From an uncultured Clostridium sp. (GTDB lineage: Bacteria; Bacillota; Clostridia; Oscillospirales; Acutalibacteraceae): a DNA stretch of 64,000 bases. Under the pieces are notes generated by a model that saw only the letters and a list, made by a program, of their open reading frames with translations, did no database searches and had not been told where the DNA came from. Positions within the stretch are counted from its first letter, which is position 1; each line of letters starts with the position of its first letter. The stretch is taken from NCBI GenBank assembly GCA_964448835.1, contig CAYUXK010000004.1:409-64408 (forward strand), read 5' to 3'. The position numbers and the translations under genes are program-made. This document shows, piece by piece, positions 8,543-16,995 of the stretch.

Positions 8543-10840
8543 TCAAAGATGCTCGATAACCGCGGCAATCACGGTCATATCATCATACCGGTTGCCGCAC
8601 TTTGCTTTTGCTTTGTCAAGGATTTTATGGGCAAGGGCGGTGGCGTCCTCGCCGGCGAAGGCGTTAAGCTCATCGAGAACCCATTCGTTGCCGCAGCCCA
8701 GAATTCCGTCGCTCACCATCAGCAAAGTGTCGCCGCCGCGAAGGGTGAGGCTTGTTTTGGCAAACCTTGAGTTTGGCAGAATACCAAGCGGAGGCGAAGA
8801 AATCTGTAGAGTGCGCACCTTACCGATGCACTTGCAAAAGCTTGCCGCGGCACCCGCTTTATAAATTGTTGTTTCGCCTGTGAAAAGGTTAATCTCCGCG
8901 ATGTCAAGGGTTGAAAGCGACTCGTCGCCCGATTTGACTGTGAGCGCGCAGGCGGTCATATCAAGAGCGGTTTGCATTGAAATACCCGCGCGAAGAAGAC
9001 GCGAATAAAGCTCAACGGTCATCGCCGAATCCACAGCCGCCCTGCCGCCCGTACCCATTCCGTCGCTGAGCAGGATATAAGCGTTTGTCTCGCCGCGGAA
9101 AAACTCGTAATAATCACCGCAAAGCCTCTCGCCGCCGCAGGCGCTGCCCGCCGCGCCGAGCCTTACGGCAAAGCGTTCCTTGCCCGCGAAAGAAAGCAGC
9201 GCGCCCTCCTGAGCCTCGCTGAGCTCGGGCGGTGAAAGCTCGACGGCAAGCTCTGACGAAAGCTGCCTTGTCAAGCGTGAAAGGCTTACCCCGGGCATAA
9301 CGGATTTTACCTGCGCCTCAAGCTGCAAAGCTCCGTTCGGCGGTATCGCGCAGCGCAAGTTATCGACTGAAAGACCGTTTTCGCGTAAAACGCGAAGAGC
9401 GGTTTTTTCTTTTTCAAAAAGTATCTGCGACTCGCCGCGCAGTGACGCAGAAAGCTCGCCCAGGAGCGCCGCGGCGCTGTCAAACTGGCAGCAGGAAAGC
9501 TCGCGGCTGCGGGCGTTTGCCGCCTCAAGGGCGGAGCTTGTCGCTCGGGAGCGAAAAACCTTGTTAAAGGAATCGCCTACCTGCAAATAGCTCGGGCATT
9601 TCGCCTTGAATTCCTGCGGAAAGTCATCGGCCTCGATTTCTCCGCCGCCCCGCAGTTTCTCTGTAAAGGAGGCGAATTCTCCGCTTTCGGGGCAGCCGCC
9701 CTCTTTAAGCGGACAATCGGCGCAAACGCGCTCGTAAACACGAAGGCGGATTATGCTGTCGTGCGCCGGCGAAAGAGCCTCAATTCCGCGCGAAACGGTG
9801 CGAATACATTCGGCAACCGAGCCGACGGCGGCAGAGGCCTCCATGAGTCTGTCGGGCGCGGTTTCAAGCCCGCTCTGAATTCGCAGGGCCGCGGGGCGGG
9901 TTAAATGTGACTTGACGGTTTCAAGCTTGGATGTGGGAATCAGCATAAAAATTACCGAGGCCACCGCGCTCTCCGCAAGCACCGCAACCCCCTGTGAGGA
10001 GCCGTCGATTACAGCCGCCAGCGCCGCCGTTACCGAGAAAGCCGCGGCTGCCGCGAGCCTTCCGTAGGCAGAGAAAATGCCGCTTGTAAGACCGCATACG
10101 GCGTAGCAAACGCTCAAAACATTAGCCGTGCCTGTAGCGGCAAAGCATGTCCCGACGCAAACGCCGGCTATGCTGCCGCCCGGCTCCGCAAAAAGATAGG
10201 CCGCGGCAAGGAGCGTGAGCGAGCCTGCAATTCTTGCGGGGTGAATGCCGTAAATGCTGACATCCGAAACGCTTAAAAGCAGCGAGCAAACCGCGATTAT
10301 CAGGCTGACAAGGCTGCGCTTGTCAAGCAGGGCAAGACCCTCTCGCCTTTCAATGCCGTAGAGCGCGCCCATATAAAGAAGAACCGCGCCGCCGCCCAGA
10401 AGCGAATCACAAACGCATTGCAGGAATCCGCTCGCTGTTGGTACGCCTGCAAACAGCACTGTAATCCCGGTAACAATGCAAACGGAAAAAACGGTTAACG
10501 GCATAATCAGCCGCCTTTTTTCCGGAAGACCGATTTTCTCAAGCAAAAACGCCGCCGCGCCCGAGGCGATGCACACGGCGATATAGCGAATAAGTCCGGC
10601 GCCCGAAAGACGCAAAAAACCGCCCGCTATGGCGCCCGCGCAGGTATAAAAAATCGCCGTGCCGCGCGAGGCTGCCGTGAGTGAGGCGGAGAGCGGTATG
10701 TAAACGCCGAATAGCCGCGCGCCCGCGAGCAAAAAGCCGCTTGCGGCGTACCCTGCCGCGACAAGGGCCTTTTTGCCTGTTTCCCAGACGAGGTCAAGCT
10801 CATCCTCGTCACGGGCAACGCCGATTTTAGTTATCTCCAT
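8543..10840 (-). CDS. spoIIE: Stage II sporulation protein E (membrane PP2C phosphatase)
   Basis: About 10 TM segments, central Cys-containing region, C-terminal CGD, LSDGMG, TLD, MVSDG and DDMTV motifs. Confidence 0.88.
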   Translation of the reverse strand: MEITKIGVARDEDELDLVWETGKKALVAAGYAASGFLLAGARLFGVYIPLSASLTAASRGTAIFYTCAGAIAGGFLRLSGAGLIRYIAVCIASGAAAFLLEKIGLPEKRRLIMPLTVFSVCIVTGITVLFAGVPTASGFLQCVCDSLLGGGAVLLYMGALYGIERREGLALLDKRSLVSLIIAVCSLLLSVSDVSIYGIHPARIAGSLTLLAAAYLFAEPGGSIAGVCVGTCFAATGTANVLSVCYAVCGLTSGIFSAYGRLAAAAAFSVTAALAAVIDGSSQGVAVLAESAVASVIFMLIPTSKLETVKSHLTRPAALRIQSGLETAPDRLMEASAAVGSVAECIRTVSRGIEALSPAHDSIIRLRVYERVCADCPLKEGGCPESGEFASFTEKLRGGGEIEADDFPQEFKAKCPSYLQVGDSFNKVFRSRATSSALEAANARSRELSCCQFDSAAALLGELSASLRGESQILFEKEKTALRVLRENGLSVDNLRCAIPPNGALQLEAQVKSVMPGVSLSRLTRQLSSELAVELSPPELSEAQEGALLSFAGKERFAVRLGAAGSACGGERLCGDYYEFFRGETNAYILLSDGMGTGGRAAVDSAMTVELYSRLLRAGISMQTALDMTACALTVKSGDESLSTLDIAEINLFTGETTIYKAGAAASFCKCIGKVRTLQISSPPLGILPNSRFAKTSLTLRGGDTLLMVSDGILGCGNEWVLDELNAFAGEDATALAHKILDKAKAKCGNRYDDMTVIAAVIEHL

Positions 10841-10877
10841 TTTTAACAGTCCTTTCAATTATGCAATATACGGATTT

Positions 10878-10911
10878 ATTTTACATTATTGCACTAAAAT
10901 AATTTGTCAAA
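10878..10911 (-). promoter_or_regulatory. Putative Spo0A-dependent spoIIE promoter
   Basis: Minus strand TTGACA (10905-10910, inside a 0A-box-like TGTCAAA) lies 21 bp from TAAAAT (10878-10883). Confidence 0.45.
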
Positions 10912-11007
10912 GCACATAGGGCGAAAAAGCAAAGCTTATTATTTTTTTTGTAAATCTGCGTATTATACTGTTGTTTTTTTAATTTTTATGATATAATATT
11001 TAATATT

Positions 11008-11793
11008 ATGGGTAGATATGTTCGAAAAAAGAAGACCAAGGAGGTCGCTGTTACGGATACTCAAATCGAAGAAGGGCTTATAATCGGCAGGAACGCTGTT
11101 GCCGAGGCCTTAAAGAGCGGCAGAGAAATCGACTGCCTGCTCGTTGCCAAGGGCGAAAGAAGCGGCTCAATCGGTCAGATAATCAGCAGGTGCCGCGACA
11201 ACGGCATTGTGGTCAAAGAGGTTGATTCCCGTAAGCTTGACAGCCTTTGCGGCGGAGAAAATCATCAGGGTGTCGCCGCGAGAGCCGCGGCGCATGAATA
11301 TTCGGACATAGCGACGATTTTAGCGGCGGCTGAAGAAAAGGGCGAGGCGCCGTTCATTGTAGTTTGCGACAGCCTTGAGGATCCTCACAATCTCGGCGCG
11401 ATTATCCGGACCGCCGACGCGTGCGGAGCGCACGGAATCGTTATCCCAAAGCGCCACGGAGTCGCGCTGACATACGCGGTCGGCAAGGTTTCGGCGGGCG
11501 CTGTTGAATATGTTCCGGTCGCGAGGGTTTCCAATCTCGCCTCTGCCATTGACGAGCTTAAAGAAAAAGGTCTTTGGGTTTACGGCGCGGATATGCAGGG
11601 CGAGGATTTCGGCAAGGTTGATTTTTCGGGCGCGGTCGCGCTTGTGGTCGGCTCTGAGGGCAAGGGTATCAGCCGACTGATAAGAGAGAAATGCGATTTT
11701 CTCGTTTCGCTCCCGATGAAAGGCAAAATTAATTCCCTTAACGCCTCCGTGGCGGCGGGGATTCTGATGTATGAGGTTGCAAGGCACAGGTAA
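11008..11793 (+). CDS. rlmB: 23S rRNA (guanosine-2251-2'-O)-methyltransferase
   Basis: IIGRNAV, NHQGV, DPHNLGAIIR, GSEGKG and SLNASVA SPOUT motifs. Confidence 0.93.
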   Translation: MGRYVRKKKTKEVAVTDTQIEEGLIIGRNAVAEALKSGREIDCLLVAKGERSGSIGQIISRCRDNGIVVKEVDSRKLDSLCGGENHQGVAARAAAHEYSDIATILAAAEEKGEAPFIVVCDSLEDPHNLGAIIRTADACGAHGIVIPKRHGVALTYAVGKVSAGAVEYVPVARVSNLASAIDELKEKGLWVYGADMQGEDFGKVDFSGAVALVVGSEGKGISRLIREKCDFLVSLPMKGKINSLNASVAAGILMYEVARHR

Positions 11794-11808
11794 CCAAAGT
11801 TTTGTGAG

Positions 11809-14736
11809 GTGAGAGTTTTGAGCGGGTTCGATAATTCTGCCGTCAGCAGCGCGACACTCGACGCTATTCTTGATGAGATAAAATCAAAAAAGACCGAGAA
11901 GACCTCCGCCGGGCCGTCAGGCGCGGCGAGGACCTGGTCTATGGACGATATTGACCGCCTGATTGCCGACACCGGCAAAGACAAGGCGGCAAAGCCGTTA
12001 TACAATCCGCCAAAGCCCATGGCCGAGCCCCCCGCGCCGCCAAGAGCTTTTGAACCCTCTCCTGTTGCGCAGGAAAGCGGACTTTCAAGGTTCCTGAGCA
12101 GCGAGTTTGACAGTAGCATTTTCACCGTTGAAGCCCCCGCCCCCGAGCTGCCGAGGCCGCTGCCCGATGTTTTTTCGGATTCCCGTCAGCTGCTCCCCGA
12201 GGTTGAAGGGCAGGAAACCTTCTTTGAGCCGATTGTGAGCGAGCCCGAGGTCTTTGAAATTGAAACAGTCGTTGTTCCCGACGAGGCTCCGCCCGTTCCG
12301 GCAGAGCAAAAGTATATTTTTGACAAAACCGCGCCCGCCGCTCCTCCCGAGAAACCGCGCCCGATTATCAACGAGTTCCCGGAGGACGAGTCAAGCGCGT
12401 TAGAATTTTTCCGCACAAAATCAGGAGCGGAGCGAAAGCCCGCGGCGGTTTCAGCCGACGGAACAAGCGAATTCAGAGCAAGATTTTTCAACAAACTGCG
12501 CCTTGAAAGAACCGCTGAGGTTGACGATTCACTGGAGGGTCCCGTTGACAAATCCGGCATAATTGTTGAAAGAAAGCCGTCAGAAGACGCTCAGCCCGGT
12601 GACCTTCAGCCCCTGCCTAAAATTGTCGCGGCTGAGGATATGCTTCAGGGCGGCGGCGATTATGACGGCAAGACGATAATTGTCGGCACCGAGAAGGAAC
12701 CCGTTCTCAAGCCTAAAAAAGAGGATGACAAGGTTGACGGGCAGATAGTGCTTACAGGCTTTGACGAGCCTCACCAAGAGGCGGAGCCCGTGACCGCCGA
12801 CGAGGTTGATATAGAGCAGGCTCTTTGGGAAAAACGAAGACAAAAGGCAAAGAGCTTTAAAATAGTTGACGCTCCCCCGATTGAGAACCTTGACGAGCCC
12901 GAGCATACATACGAGGCCGAGGAGCAGGAACAAAAGGAGCGCAAAAAAGAGAACCGCAGACATCTGGAGGATGAGAATCCCCCCGATGACTCCCCCGCGG
13001 GCGAATACACAATGAGCGCCGAGAGAATCGCCGTTCACAGCCGCCTTAACAGGGCCGTTAAAAAAGCCTCCGCAGCGCTTATAGTCAACCTGATTGGTGA
13101 AGTTCTGTTTTTGCTGATGTTTTTCCTGCCGCGGATAGTCGAGGCGCTTTCATATAAGAGCGTTGTTTTCGCCGATGGCTCGTTATTTATGCTTTCGGCA
13201 AACGCGGCGCTTCTCATAATCCTGACGGTAATCAATAACGAGAGCTTTATCGACGGATTCACTAAGCTGATAAATAAAAAACCCGACGCCGATTCCGCCG
13301 CGAGCCTGTGCGTGGCTGTGGCTTTGGTACAGACCGTGATTTGCGCCGTTGCCGGCAACGGCGCGTCAAGCGCTCCGATTTTTACCGCTTCTGCGGCGTT
13401 CGCGATGGTGATTGCCACACTTACGCGCAAAACCGTCGCGGCTCGCATACTCGAAAATTTCGAGGTTTGCGCTTATAAAAAGGAACACAGCCTTTACGCA
13501 ATCCACCGCTTCGATAACGAGGCGGAGATATTTGAGCTGGGCAGAGGTCTTTTGATGGGCAACGCCGAGCTGCTCTACTCCTCCAAGGTCGGCTTCCCCT
13601 CGGATTTTCTCAAGAACTCCGACAGCTGCTCCGTGCAGGAAAAAACAGCGAAAATCCTCATTCCCGCGGCTGCTGCCGGCGCTGCCGTTTCGGCGGTGCT
13701 TACGGGGGTTTTCACAAAGGATGTTTACCTTGCCCTCGCCGCGTTCGCGGGAACATTTTGCATCTGCTCGCCTGTGCTCTCGGCGCTTTGCCCCGAATGG
13801 ATTACAAGAAGGTCAAACATTACTCTTAACGCCGCAGGCTCGATGATTGTCAGCATTGACGCGGCAGAAAAAACCGTTCAGGCAAACGCCGTAGTTATTG
13901 ACAGCGCCGATATTTTTGATCGTTCGAACTGCGCCATGCACGGAATGAAGGATTTCAAAAACATCAGAATTGACGATGTTCTTCTTTACGCGGCGGCGCT
14001 TGTTATTAAGTCGGGCGGTCCGCTTCGCGAAAGCTTTGAGCAGGTTGTCAGCAACAGGCAGGATTTGCTGCCGCCCGTCAAGGAGCTTGTTTATGAGGAT
14101 AAGCTCGGCATCGCGGCAAGAATTCACGGGCAAAAGGTTTTGCTCGGCAACCGCAGCCTTCTCACCAATCACAACATTGAGGTTCCCGATAAATCGGTTG
14201 AGGATAAATATACCCACAGTGGGCGCAAGGTAATGTACCTTGCCGTCGCGGGTAAGCTCGCGGCGCTGTTTGTTGTGAGCTACGCCGTTGACGAATCGCT
14301 TCGCCCCTACCTTAAAGAGCTTGAAAGCAACGGCACTCAGGTGCTTGTGCGCACAAACGACGTCAATGTGACCGAGGAGCTTATTTCTCACGCGTTTGAT
14401 ATGCCCAAGCAAAGCATCCACATTCTTTCATCTGTCGCGGGCAGACTATTTAAGCGCCGGCGTGACGCGGTTACGGACCGTTTGCCTGTTCGCGTAATGC
14501 ACGACGGCACGGCGTATTCAATGCTGCGCACAGTTGCGGCGGCAGGCAGAATGAACGCCGCGTCGCGGTTAGGCTCAGCGGCTCAGATAGCGGCGGCTGC
14601 AATCGGATTTGCGGGCATGGCTGTGCTTGGGGGATTAGGATTATCCGAATATTTTAACGGTTTTACGGCGGTGCTTTTCAGCGTCGCGGCAACGGCGGCG
14701 GTACTCGGGGTTACTTCAATTAAGCGCATAAAATAA
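11809..14736 (+). CDS. Degenerate P1B-type ATPase-like membrane protein with long acidic/Pro-rich N-terminus
   Basis: C-terminal half tracks P1B N and P domains (LGIAARIHGQKVLLGN, GRKVMYLAVAGKLAALF, VLVRTND), but DKTGT is replaced by DSADI; start could be TTG 11818. Confidence 0.65.
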   Translation: MRVLSGFDNSAVSSATLDAILDEIKSKKTEKTSAGPSGAARTWSMDDIDRLIADTGKDKAAKPLYNPPKPMAEPPAPPRAFEPSPVAQESGLSRFLSSEFDSSIFTVEAPAPELPRPLPDVFSDSRQLLPEVEGQETFFEPIVSEPEVFEIETVVVPDEAPPVPAEQKYIFDKTAPAAPPEKPRPIINEFPEDESSALEFFRTKSGAERKPAAVSADGTSEFRARFFNKLRLERTAEVDDSLEGPVDKSGIIVERKPSEDAQPGDLQPLPKIVAAEDMLQGGGDYDGKTIIVGTEKEPVLKPKKEDDKVDGQIVLTGFDEPHQEAEPVTADEVDIEQALWEKRRQKAKSFKIVDAPPIENLDEPEHTYEAEEQEQKERKKENRRHLEDENPPDDSPAGEYTMSAERIAVHSRLNRAVKKASAALIVNLIGEVLFLLMFFLPRIVEALSYKSVVFADGSLFMLSANAALLIILTVINNESFIDGFTKLINKKPDADSAASLCVAVALVQTVICAVAGNGASSAPIFTASAAFAMVIATLTRKTVAARILENFEVCAYKKEHSLYAIHRFDNEAEIFELGRGLLMGNAELLYSSKVGFPSDFLKNSDSCSVQEKTAKILIPAAAAGAAVSAVLTGVFTKDVYLALAAFAGTFCICSPVLSALCPEWITRRSNITLNAAGSMIVSIDAAEKTVQANAVVIDSADIFDRSNCAMHGMKDFKNIRIDDVLLYAAALVIKSGGPLRESFEQVVSNRQDLLPPVKELVYEDKLGIAARIHGQKVLLGNRSLLTNHNIEVPDKSVEDKYTHSGRKVMYLAVAGKLAALFVVSYAVDESLRPYLKELESNGTQVLVRTNDVNVTEELISHAFDMPKQSIHILSSVAGRLFKRRRDAVTDRLPVRVMHDGTAYSMLRTVAAAGRMNAASRLGSAAQIAAAAIGFAGMAVLGGLGLSEYFNGFTAVLFSVAATAAVLGVTSIKRIK

Positions 14737-14752
14737 AAATTTCAAAAAACAC

Positions 14753-14781
14753 TTGACTTTTTGCCGTATATGGCATAGAAT
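14753..14781 (+). promoter_or_regulatory. sigma-A promoter of infC operon
   Basis: TTGACT (14753-14758), 17 bp, TAGAAT (14776-14781). Confidence 0.75.
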
Positions 14782-14789
14782 AACTGCAC

Positions 14790-14930
14790 AACAAAGCAGA
14801 GTGGCGGCTCTCACCGCGGGGTTTCGTCCCATCGTCGGTCAATAGCTTATTCAACGGGCAAGCGCTCGGATAAGTGTTTTGATTATTTCGGCGAGGGCAG
14901 AGATCACTGCCCTCGCTTTAAATTTTACTT
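14790..14930 (+). ncRNA. Ribosomal protein L20 leader (autoregulatory element)
   Basis: AAGCAGAGTGGCGGCTCTCACC resembles the L20 leader 5' motif; hairpin GCGAGGGCAG/CTGCCCTCGC plus T tract at 14891-14919; directly upstream of infC-rpmI-rplT. Confidence 0.7.
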
Positions 14931-16123: not shown

Positions 16124-16209
16124 ATTATGCAAAGCTTGAGATGTAACAAATATTTACTTTGTTACATCTCTATTCTATAGTTGATATTCGCGCCGAAAGG
16201 AAGGGCAGA

Positions 16210-16995
16210 ATGCTTAAAATCGAGAGCCGTTCCAACGAAAGAATCAAATACGCCGTCTCCCTTCGCGAGAGCGCTAAGAATCGCGCGCAGAGCGGCGAGT
16301 TTTTAATTGAGGGGGCGCGCCTGTGCCGCGACGCGGCGCAGAGCGGTCTTGAGATCAGGTGTGCCTTTTTTACGGCAGAGGCCCTTGAAAGATACGGCGA
16401 GTATATTAATGTAATAAAAACTGCGGCGCGTGAATGCTATGAGCTGGCGGAGCATATTTCGGCCAAGCTGTCCGAAACCGCGGGCAGTCAGGGCGTTTTT
16501 TGCATATGCGCCGTACCCGCGCAAAAATCTGACGGCGACATTGAAGCGAGCGGAAAATATCTCGCTCTCGAGAACATACAGGATCCTTCGAATTTCGGCG
16601 CAATCTGCCGCACGGCTGAGGCGCTCGGGCTGACAGGGCTGATTGTATGCGGCGGCTGTGATATCTATAACCCGAAGGCGCTTCGCGCCGCGATGGGCTC
16701 TTCGTTTCGCGTTAATATTATTATGTGCGGAAACCTGCCGCAGCTGATTAAAACAGCAGCCGCCAAGGGCATGAACACCCTCGCCTCAACCCCCGATTCG
16801 GGCGCGGCGGATATTCGCGCGGTCGATTTTAACGGCGGAGTTATCGCTGTTGTGGGTAACGAGGGCGCGGGCGTGAGCGATGAAACCCTTCGCGAGTGCA
16901 AGCAGACCGTAACAATACCCATGCATGGCAAGGCGGAGTCCTTAAACGCGGCGGCCGCGGCGGCAATTATCGCGTGGGAAATGATGAGGGCATAA
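16210..16995 (+). CDS. TrmH/SpoU family RNA methyltransferase
   Basis: FLIEG, IQDPSNFGAICRTA, GNEGAG, ESLNAA. Confidence 0.9.
   Translation: MLKIESRSNERIKYAVSLRESAKNRAQSGEFLIEGARLCRDAAQSGLEIRCAFFTAEALERYGEYINVIKTAARECYELAEHISAKLSETAGSQGVFCICAVPAQKSDGDIEASGKYLALENIQDPSNFGAICRTAEALGLTGLIVCGGCDIYNPKALRAAMGSSFRVNIIMCGNLPQLIKTAAAKGMNTLASTPDSGAADIRAVDFNGGVIAVVGNEGAGVSDETLRECKQTVTIPMHGKAESLNAAAAAAIIAWEMMRA

Follow-up and report, generated by a model that had tools for sequence, protein, structure and literature searches.

We analysed 64,000 nucleotides (nt) of DNA from an uncultured Clostridium sp. (GenBank assembly GCA_964448835.1, contig CAYUXK010000004.1, positions 409 to 64,408 of the forward strand); this whole stretch is the window referred to below. 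Directly behind rlmB, the window holds an open and intact reading frame (11809-14736, plus strand) for a large membrane protein, which we call the pseudo-P1B-ATPase. We report that the product of this gene descends from a Cu(I)-type (P1B-1) P-type ATPase and is catalytically dead. A first-pass annotation, made from the sequence alone, had proposed that the protein is a non-pumping scaffold or sensor built on the P-type fold. The coordinates of the gene, of its neighbour and of the parts of the protein are collected in Table 1.

Counted from GTG 11809, the frame encodes 975 amino acids (aa). The first-pass annotation took this codon as the start; the open frame stands, while TTG 11818 is the likelier first codon. 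The ribosome-binding site (RBS) GAGGTGAG at 11805-11812 directly abuts GTG 11809, and because of this TTG 11818, which is properly spaced from the RBS, is the better start. Starting at TTG 11818, the product has 972 aa and is 100% identical to a protein in the public databases (P0002). So, the gene probably starts at TTG 11818, not at GTG 11809. (Residue numbers throughout count from GTG 11809.) A scan of the 24-nt gap between rlmB and the gene found no promoter-like or terminator-like site, and the two genes are probably co-transcribed.

The C-terminal ~570 residues are a full-length homologue of P1B ATPases of the CopA type. The NCBIfam equivalog model for CopA gives a partial match (E = 1.6e-13) whose 49.8 bits lie below the model's cut-off of 1316. 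Similarly, phmmer matches residues 644-886 to LpCopA (3rfu; E = 8.9e-11). A Pfam scan gave no match at E ≤ 1, including to E1-E2_ATPase and Hydrolase, and no Pfam model exists for the family itself. We built a family profile from 138 diverse members (representatives at 50% clustering, which we also used for all of the motif counts below) and compared it to a profile of CopA from Clostridia with hhalign. The two profiles align with a probability of 100% (E = 4.6e-44) across CopA residues 75-747, from helix MA to helix M6, which is everything past the HMA domain. Furthermore, AlphaFold models residues 400-975 with confidence (pLDDT 88.8, pTM 0.85), and a Foldseek search with this model puts 4bbj (LpCopA, E = 8e-18, TM-score 0.5-0.6), 3rfu, and ATP7B at the top of the PDB (E = 8e-18 to 1e-13), with further matches to HMA4, ZntA, and KdpB. 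The model, Foldseek, and hhalign all find the eight-helix topology and the cytosolic A/P/N head of the P1B fold. The first-pass annotation had seen the order of transmembrane helices, N domain, and P domain of heavy-metal P1B ATPases and had called for a structural comparison with CopA and ZntA; that comparison shows strong similarity to P-type ATPases. The pseudo-P1B-ATPase is thus a member of the P-type structural superfamily.

Within its own genome, the hidden Markov model of the family scores CopA at 106 bits, as against 27 bits for a CadA-like pump and 20 bits for a P2-type pump. Because CopA scores far above the other pumps, we place the origin of the family in the Cu(I) P1B-1 lineage. 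The CopA of this genome (on contig C49) is intact, with CPC, TGE, DKTGT, and GDGIND motifs, and the genome also encodes a second intact P1B pump and three further P-type ATPases, so the job of pumping is served elsewhere. (A search of the genome for PF00122 matched five other genes and did not match the pseudo-P1B-ATPase.) The pseudo-P1B-ATPase is an extra, degenerate paralogue.

Element by element, the fold is that of CopA (3RFU/4BBJ), of ATP7B, and of the genome's own CopA: MA-MB-M1-M2, the A domain, M3-M4 with a proline kink, the P and N domains, and M5-M6. The kink in helix MB, with a motif like the 'G..L....PNMDS' of CopA-type pumps, is also retained. Where these pumps have an HMA domain, the pseudo-P1B-ATPase has none; it has an acidic tail instead, disordered and 150-1000 aa long across the family. 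It also lacks the CPC, TGE, DKTGT, SEHPL, and GDGxND motifs, and both its A domain and the second half of its P domain are shorter.

To judge from the aligned sequences, every element of the pump cycle and of metal binding has been lost across the family. The phosphorylation motif, DKTGT, is replaced by D698-S-A-D-I-F (within the string VVIDSADIF, where Asp698 is the codon GAC at 13900-13902). The loss of KTGT had been noticed at first reading and is family-wide, with a consensus of D[AS]x[DE]LF; the aspartate itself is present in 115/138 members, and the other 23 (17%) have N, E, K, G, or H there. The TGE motif, reported as absent, does not occur anywhere in the protein and has M-G-N at the aligned position (in ELGRGLLMGN), in an A domain that is cut to about 70 aa, versus about 115 in CopA, or ~45 aa shorter. 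Both the alignment and the family columns agree with the original reading of TND for TGD (in VRTNDV) and HDGT for GDGxND (in VMHDGT): across the family, the former is T-x-D, with Asp851 invariant, and the latter is H-[DN]-G (H898-D-G here), in the shortened second half of the P domain. The lysine of HAD motif III is replaced by Gly878. In P1B pumps, a glutamate and a histidine of the N domain hold the adenine. Here, SEHPL is replaced by S-G-G-P-L, with glycine at the histidine position in 121/138 members, and the upstream glutamate position is occupied by valine or isoleucine.

The metal sites are gone as well. The first-pass annotation was right that the CPC site is degenerate, but it placed the site at the 'CIC' of FCICSP, and the profile alignment instead puts S654-P655-V656 there. 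(All four strings that it quoted do occur in the translation.) The family pattern at this site is [SAV]-P-[VA]; both cysteines are gone and the proline (P655) is kept in 135/138 members, with Cys651 lying one helical turn upstream. The metal ligands of helices M5 and M6 in P1B-1 pumps (YN and MxxSS) were not recognisable in either the alignment or the column counts. Because we tested five defining motifs and found none of them, the protein does not, functionally, belong to the P1B ATPase family. With all four HAD motifs, TGE, the glutamate and histidine for the nucleotide, and CPC lost, there is no sign of ATP-driven transport, which supports the non-pumping part of the original proposal.

We also observed a C-x-M-H-G sequence (13930-13944; Cys708 and His711) after the dead phosphorylation motif. 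It is invariant among close relatives (119/119), and in the diverse set Cys708 is kept in 91/138 members and His711 in 75/138. As far as the sequence goes, these two residues, along with Asp698, Asp701, and Asp704, might be a candidate for a new metal or ligand site.

Despite the lost sites, the gene is maintained by selection. We computed dN/dS, as the first-pass annotation had suggested, for 15 pairs of close orthologues by the method of Nei and Gojobori. The ratio is 0.03-0.09 for the core as a whole and just 0.00-0.04 for the cytosolic head (the remnant of the A domain and the P and N domains), as compared to 0.06-0.15 for the membrane helices and 0.06-0.24 for the tail. Over the diverse set, about 50 positions of the N domain have at least 60% identity, and several invariant or near-invariant polar residues are new to the family (Y762, E763, R782, H788, E798, and Y825). 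In the membrane helices, hardly any polar residues are conserved, and constraint within the core is weakest there. This concentration of conservation in the N domain implies that the "dead" cytosolic head is the functional centre of the protein.

Table 1. Features of the rlmB/pseudo-P1B-ATPase locus, with positions in the window.
Feature	Position	Strand	Evidence or remarks
rlmB (SpoU-family 23S rRNA 2'-O-methyltransferase)	11008..11793	+	Pfam SpoU_methylase E 8e-45, SpoU_sub_bind E 1e-22
rlmB stop codon	11791-11793	+	
Spacer between rlmB and pseudo-P1B-ATPase, 24 nt, holds RBS GAGGTGAG	11794..11817	+	Sequence and scan
Pseudo-P1B-ATPase gene	11818..14736 (longest ORF from 11809)	+	P0002 = 972 aa, 100% identity
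Tail motif 1, T-L-D-A-I-L-D-E-I-K (residues 16-25), helix type phi-[DE]-[DE]-I-L-x-E	11854..11883	+	
Tail motif 2, W-S-M-D-D-I-D-R-L-I (residues 43-52)	11935..11964	+	Predicted helix 42-53, pLDDT ~72
Acidic Pro-rich disordered linker	11965..12534	+	pLDDT <50 over most of residues 53-213; poorly alignable, length varies
Conserved tail island (about residues 243-283), consensus EKPG..K..T..L.P.P...AE..L	12535..12657	+	Alignments A1 (diverse) and A3
Tail motif 3, G-Q-I-V-L-T-G-F (residues 311-318)	12739..12762	+	
Membrane-proximal amphipathic helix ExxxExxLxxxRxxKxxxF (residues 332-350)	12802..12858	+	pLDDT ~86
Helices MA, MB, M1, M2 (residues 405-548), P1B-like 'G..L....P.aDs' kink (G483)	13021..13452	+	hhalign to CopA, model helices; few conserved residues
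Reduced A-domain remnant (residues 549-617)	13453..13659	+	hhalign; mean column identity 0.93-0.94 among close relatives
Helices M3, M4 (residues 618-672), P655, S654, V656, Cys651	13660..13824	+	Alignment, column counts
First half of P domain, dead motif D698-S-A-D-I-F (codon 13900-13902)	13825..13956	+	phmmer, column counts
N domain (residues 717-826), most conserved part; S-G-G-P-L; G767, G780, Y825 invariant	13957..14286	+	Column counts
Shortened second P-domain half (residues 827-904); T-N-D, D851, G878, H898-D-G	14287..14520	+	Alignment, column counts
Helices M5, M6 (residues 905-975)	14521..14733	+	Alignment, model

The family is large and has a narrow range. When 1.84 billion cluster representatives were searched exhaustively, 974 clusters (50% identity) matched at E < 1e-30. 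Of the full-length proteins among the 150 matches listed, nearly all combine a variable tail with the ~570-aa core, and none has a precomputed Pfam domain. In the window's order, which we take to be the Oscillospirales of GTDB, exactly one copy is present in 225/251 genomes and in 119/133 genera. Across 300 genomes from the class, full-length matches are confined to this order, and the other matches are to CopA-type proteins over the P/N region only; across 301 genomes from the phylum, we found matches only in four genomes, which belong to this order. Outside the order, the family did not turn up in about 290 other genomes of Clostridia or in about 290 others of the phylum. (The window's organism is a metagenome-assembled member of the Acutalibacteraceae; in the NCBI taxonomy, the family falls within the Eubacteriales.) Members from named organisms include those of Ethanoligenens harbinense, [Clostridium] cellulosi, and Anaeromassilibacillus senegalensis, and they are annotated as "hypothetical protein," "membrane protein," or "cation transport ATPase." We considered a link to sporulation, as spoIIE lies upstream and divergent in the window, and rejected it: that arrangement is not conserved in synteny. 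Furthermore, 18 of the 19 genomes of the order that have no match to Spo0A_C still have the gene, so it is not tied to sporulation.

The combination of lost catalytic residues, purifying selection (ω of 0.00-0.09), and wide conservation marks the protein as a pseudoenzyme. Because an intact copy persists in nearly every sampled genome of the order even though the sites are lost, the protein presumably has a non-pumping job.

In front of the core lies the cytoplasmic N-terminal tail, which was originally described as acidic, rich in proline, and ~400 aa long. It has 404 aa, with 21% Asp and Glu, 12% Lys and Arg, 11% Pro, and a net charge of -36. The tails of the 138 representatives range from 151 to 1008 aa (median 364) and have a similar composition (23% acidic, 13% basic, and 8.5% proline, with a median net charge of -35). 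In the AlphaFold model of the full-length protein, most of residues 1-400 have pLDDT < 50, with ordered islands at residues 13-27, 42-53, about 245-285, 329-346 (pLDDT 86), and 366-385. The conserved part of the tail amounts to four or five short motifs, two of them at its far tip. Motif 1, in a predicted helix (13-27, pLDDT ~69), occurs within the first 70 aa of 84/138 members, as compared to 2.9 expected from shuffled sequences. By the same comparison, motif 2 (WSxx[DE]IDxL) occurs in 53/138 members, with 0.1 expected, and WSxxDIDxL is found in no other ORF of the genome. For the tail island (about 245-285), the model predicts an ordered segment made of two short strands and one helix (pLDDT 75-88). 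Motif 3 (GQxxLxGF) occurs in 58/138 members, with 0 expected from shuffles; Q312 is kept in 118/138 and F318 in 110/138. The motif of the membrane-proximal helix occurs in 107/138 members, with 11 expected from shuffles, and the phenylalanine at its end (F350) is kept in 129/138 and is invariant in alignment A3. We asked if this membrane-proximal segment (GQxxLxGF and the helix) could be a degenerate HMA domain and rejected the idea, as hhalign against the N-termini of CopA gives a probability of 0.1%.

The location of the gene right behind rlmB, which was noted from this one sequence, turns out to be a rule for the family. We compared 20 loci from about 18 families of the order, 35 further diverse loci (with 1.5 kb of flanking sequence only), and 80 close relatives. 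The gene immediately upstream is rlmB, on the same strand, in 20/20, 33/35, and 79/80 of these, respectively. In 16 other loci, the gap between the two genes ranges from -62 to +58 nt, including two overlaps of 4 nt. Among the 20 diverse loci, rlmB is the sole conserved neighbour, and the other neighbours vary.

Downstream of the gene, a translation-related gene directly follows in 8/21 loci: a paralogue of EF-G in five, Era in one, YebC in one, and infC-rpmI-rplT in one (this window). The EF-G paralogue is adjacent in 5/20 and 9/35 diverse loci (two loci are in both sets), or about a quarter, and at least 8 different families of the order have it directly behind the pseudo-P1B-ATPase gene. 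(Examples are at loci L144:5817-7865 on the minus strand, L145, L151, L155, and L158.) It is adjacent in 0/80 close relatives, where infC follows instead in 65/80. In switch II of the paralogue, DTPG[FYL]xDF replaces the canonical DTPGHVDF, so it lacks the catalytic histidine, and most copies also lack NKxD. The genome of the window encodes an orthologue of this His-less paralogue away from the pseudo-P1B-ATPase (contig C22:23088-25091, minus strand), as well as a canonical EF-G with the histidine (contig C30).

Taken as a general reading, a non-pumping, membrane-anchored scaffold or sensor is on balance the probable nature of the protein. In this role, the strongly constrained N/P head would be a binding surface for a protein or a small ligand, and the tail would serve as a flexible tether, with motifs that capture partners in the cytoplasm or dock back onto the head. 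The gene is a single-copy core gene of the order and is probably expressed from the rlmB operon. Its most likely field of action would be a housekeeping role tied to ribosomes or translation at the membrane, because its recurrent neighbours are RlmB (always), the His-less EF-G paralogue, IF3-L35-L20, Era, and YebC.

Several points weigh against this reading of the protein as a scaffold or sensor. The tail is missing altogether from one family of the order (f75), whose ORFs are about 550 aa long; this implies that the core carries the basic function and that the tether is not essential to it. The seven longest members (1197-1587 aa) gave no domain match to Pfam and show no fusion to RlmB or EF-G. 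The candidate partners, RlmB and the EF-G paralogue, are proposed from genomic association, and shared housekeeping expression alone could account for the position next to rlmB. Finally, Asp698, which is present in 83% of members, and the invariant Asp851 may form a residual site for Mg2+ or phosphate in most members.

A narrower version of the scaffold proposal is that the protein is a membrane receptor of a translation module, with the head or the tail motifs tethering the His-less EF-G paralogue, RlmB, or ribosomes. We think of this as possible but unlikely. Besides the constant presence of rlmB upstream, the adjoining EF-G paralogue in at least 8 families suggests an ancestral rlmB-X-EFG2 cluster; this paralogue has no catalytic histidine, in the window's genome as elsewhere; IF3, Era, or YebC lies downstream in other lineages; and the tail motifs, being acidic and hydrophobic, remind us of the tails of stalk proteins that bind translational GTPases. 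Yet the EF-G paralogue is not adjacent in this genome or in any of the 80 closest relatives, there are no fusion proteins among the seven longest members, and the tail-less f75 clade still has the pairing with rlmB. An alternative, which we rate as less probable again, is that the remodelled N/P pocket binds a nucleotide or another small molecule and shifts without phosphorylation, with the signal passing through the tail. In favour of this, the N domain is the most conserved part, with ~50 well-conserved positions; Asp851 and the GxG and GN glycines (G767 and G780) are invariant; six new polar residues have appeared; furthermore, the conservation of SGGPL, with glycine for histidine, suggests a pocket that is maintained but reshaped. 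However, the glutamate and the histidine that hold adenine in P1B pumps are lost, and the conservation of the surface fits protein binding equally well.

Could the protein instead be an ATP-driven pump, or a passive channel, for another substrate with unorthodox motifs? The full eight-helix domain and the proline of M4 are kept, and so is Asp698 in most members, but the other requirements are absent: TGE, the Lys-Thr-Gly-Thr that should follow the aspartate, the lysine of motif III, the Mg-binding Asn/Asp of GDGxND, and the histidine for the nucleotide. Even Asp698 gives way to N, E, K, G, or H in 17% of members, although other positions are invariant, and the membrane helices are nearly devoid of conserved polar residues and are the least constrained region of the core. 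We consider transport very unlikely. As for a decaying pseudogene or an artefact of annotation, the lost motifs, the lack of a Pfam match, and the "hypothetical" annotations might seem to fit, but the first-pass annotation already argued from the long intact frame that the gene is not decaying, and the single copy in 225 of 251 genomes and the low dN/dS refute the idea. The reading frame is unbroken in the window and in nearly all matches from the order-wide search for which frames were listed, ω is far under 1 in every region, the structural model is confident, and the position of the gene is conserved, which leaves decay or artefact with a negligible chance.

We made several other observations about these loci. 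At the f75 locus L159 (G434:C23, 6939-9560), the tail-less pseudo-pump has 550 aa, the RlmB encoded upstream has a Lys/Arg-rich N-terminal extension of ~60 aa, and yebC and then four more ORFs follow downstream. In other orders of Clostridia (L162-L190), rlmB is usually followed by yacP/rae1 (NYN domain), sigH, or a small ACT-domain protein (UPF0237-like), and the pseudo-pump sits in the slot of the yacP-sigH pair of other Firmicutes. In one genome from another order of Clostridia (G030; locus L168, G030:C4, about 10070-12700), a canonical CopA, whose HMA domain has GMSCAAC, begins 2 nt past rlmB. We considered whether the family arose from a copper pump at the rlmB locus and rejected this, as the CopA of G030 is not especially close to the family and there was no second case among the about 16 genomes compared. 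The pair in G030 may echo the origin of the pairing of rlmB with a pump, or it may be due to chance.

In the window itself, a promoter-like sequence (TTGACT-17-TAGAAT, 14753-14781) lies past the stop codon of the pseudo-P1B-ATPase, and a strong hairpin followed by a run of T (14890-14917) lies just within the annotated start of infC. This hairpin may be a leader or attenuator of infC-rpmI-rplT. A second gene for a SpoU/TrmH-family methyltransferase (16159-16995), whose product is 31% identical to RlmB, lies between rplT and dprA.

Few membrane enzymes are understood as well as the P-type ATPases, and we know of no catalytically dead lineage of them in bacteria. Our literature search found no paper on this family or on any bacterial P-type ATPase that is catalytically dead. 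Non-transporting relatives of transporters are familiar from another superfamily: the glucose sensors Snf3 and Rgt2 of yeast have a transporter fold that does not transport and a long, disordered cytoplasmic tail with conserved motifs that recruit partners. These sensors belong to the unrelated major facilitator superfamily, carry the tail at the C-terminus, and have a known ligand and known partners. The pseudo-P1B-ATPase, with its P-type fold and N-terminal tail, probably works like a pseudoenzyme or a transporter-derived sensor.

We found a single precedent for a P-type ATPase module that has degenerated, the P4-ATPase-like domain of the apicomplexan guanylate cyclase PfGCβ; most of its signature residues are described as unidentifiable, and the domain is kept within a signalling protein (PMC6592433). 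That module is eukaryotic, derives from the P4 (lipid flippase) lineage, and is fused to cyclase domains. The pseudo-P1B-ATPase, by comparison, is bacterial, derives from the P1B lineage, and stands alone, with the disordered tail as its only fusion. The most specific proposal that we can make is that the family is the first recognised bacterial clade of non-catalytic P-type ATPases and acts as an order-wide membrane receptor of an ancestral rlmB-X-(His-less EF-G) translation module, with the tail or head docking the pseudo-GTPase, RlmB, or ribosomes. Taken as a whole, this is a tentative and rather doubtful proposal.

There is one such protein per genome, under strong constraint and paired with an rRNA methyltransferase gene, across an order of abundant gut and digester Clostridia. 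The order-wide single copy, the constraint, and the operon-like pairing with rlmB therefore point to a core function that has not been described. The family is also a natural experiment in which the fold of a pump has been re-used for binding or signalling, and as some members have been cultured, the question can be tested directly.

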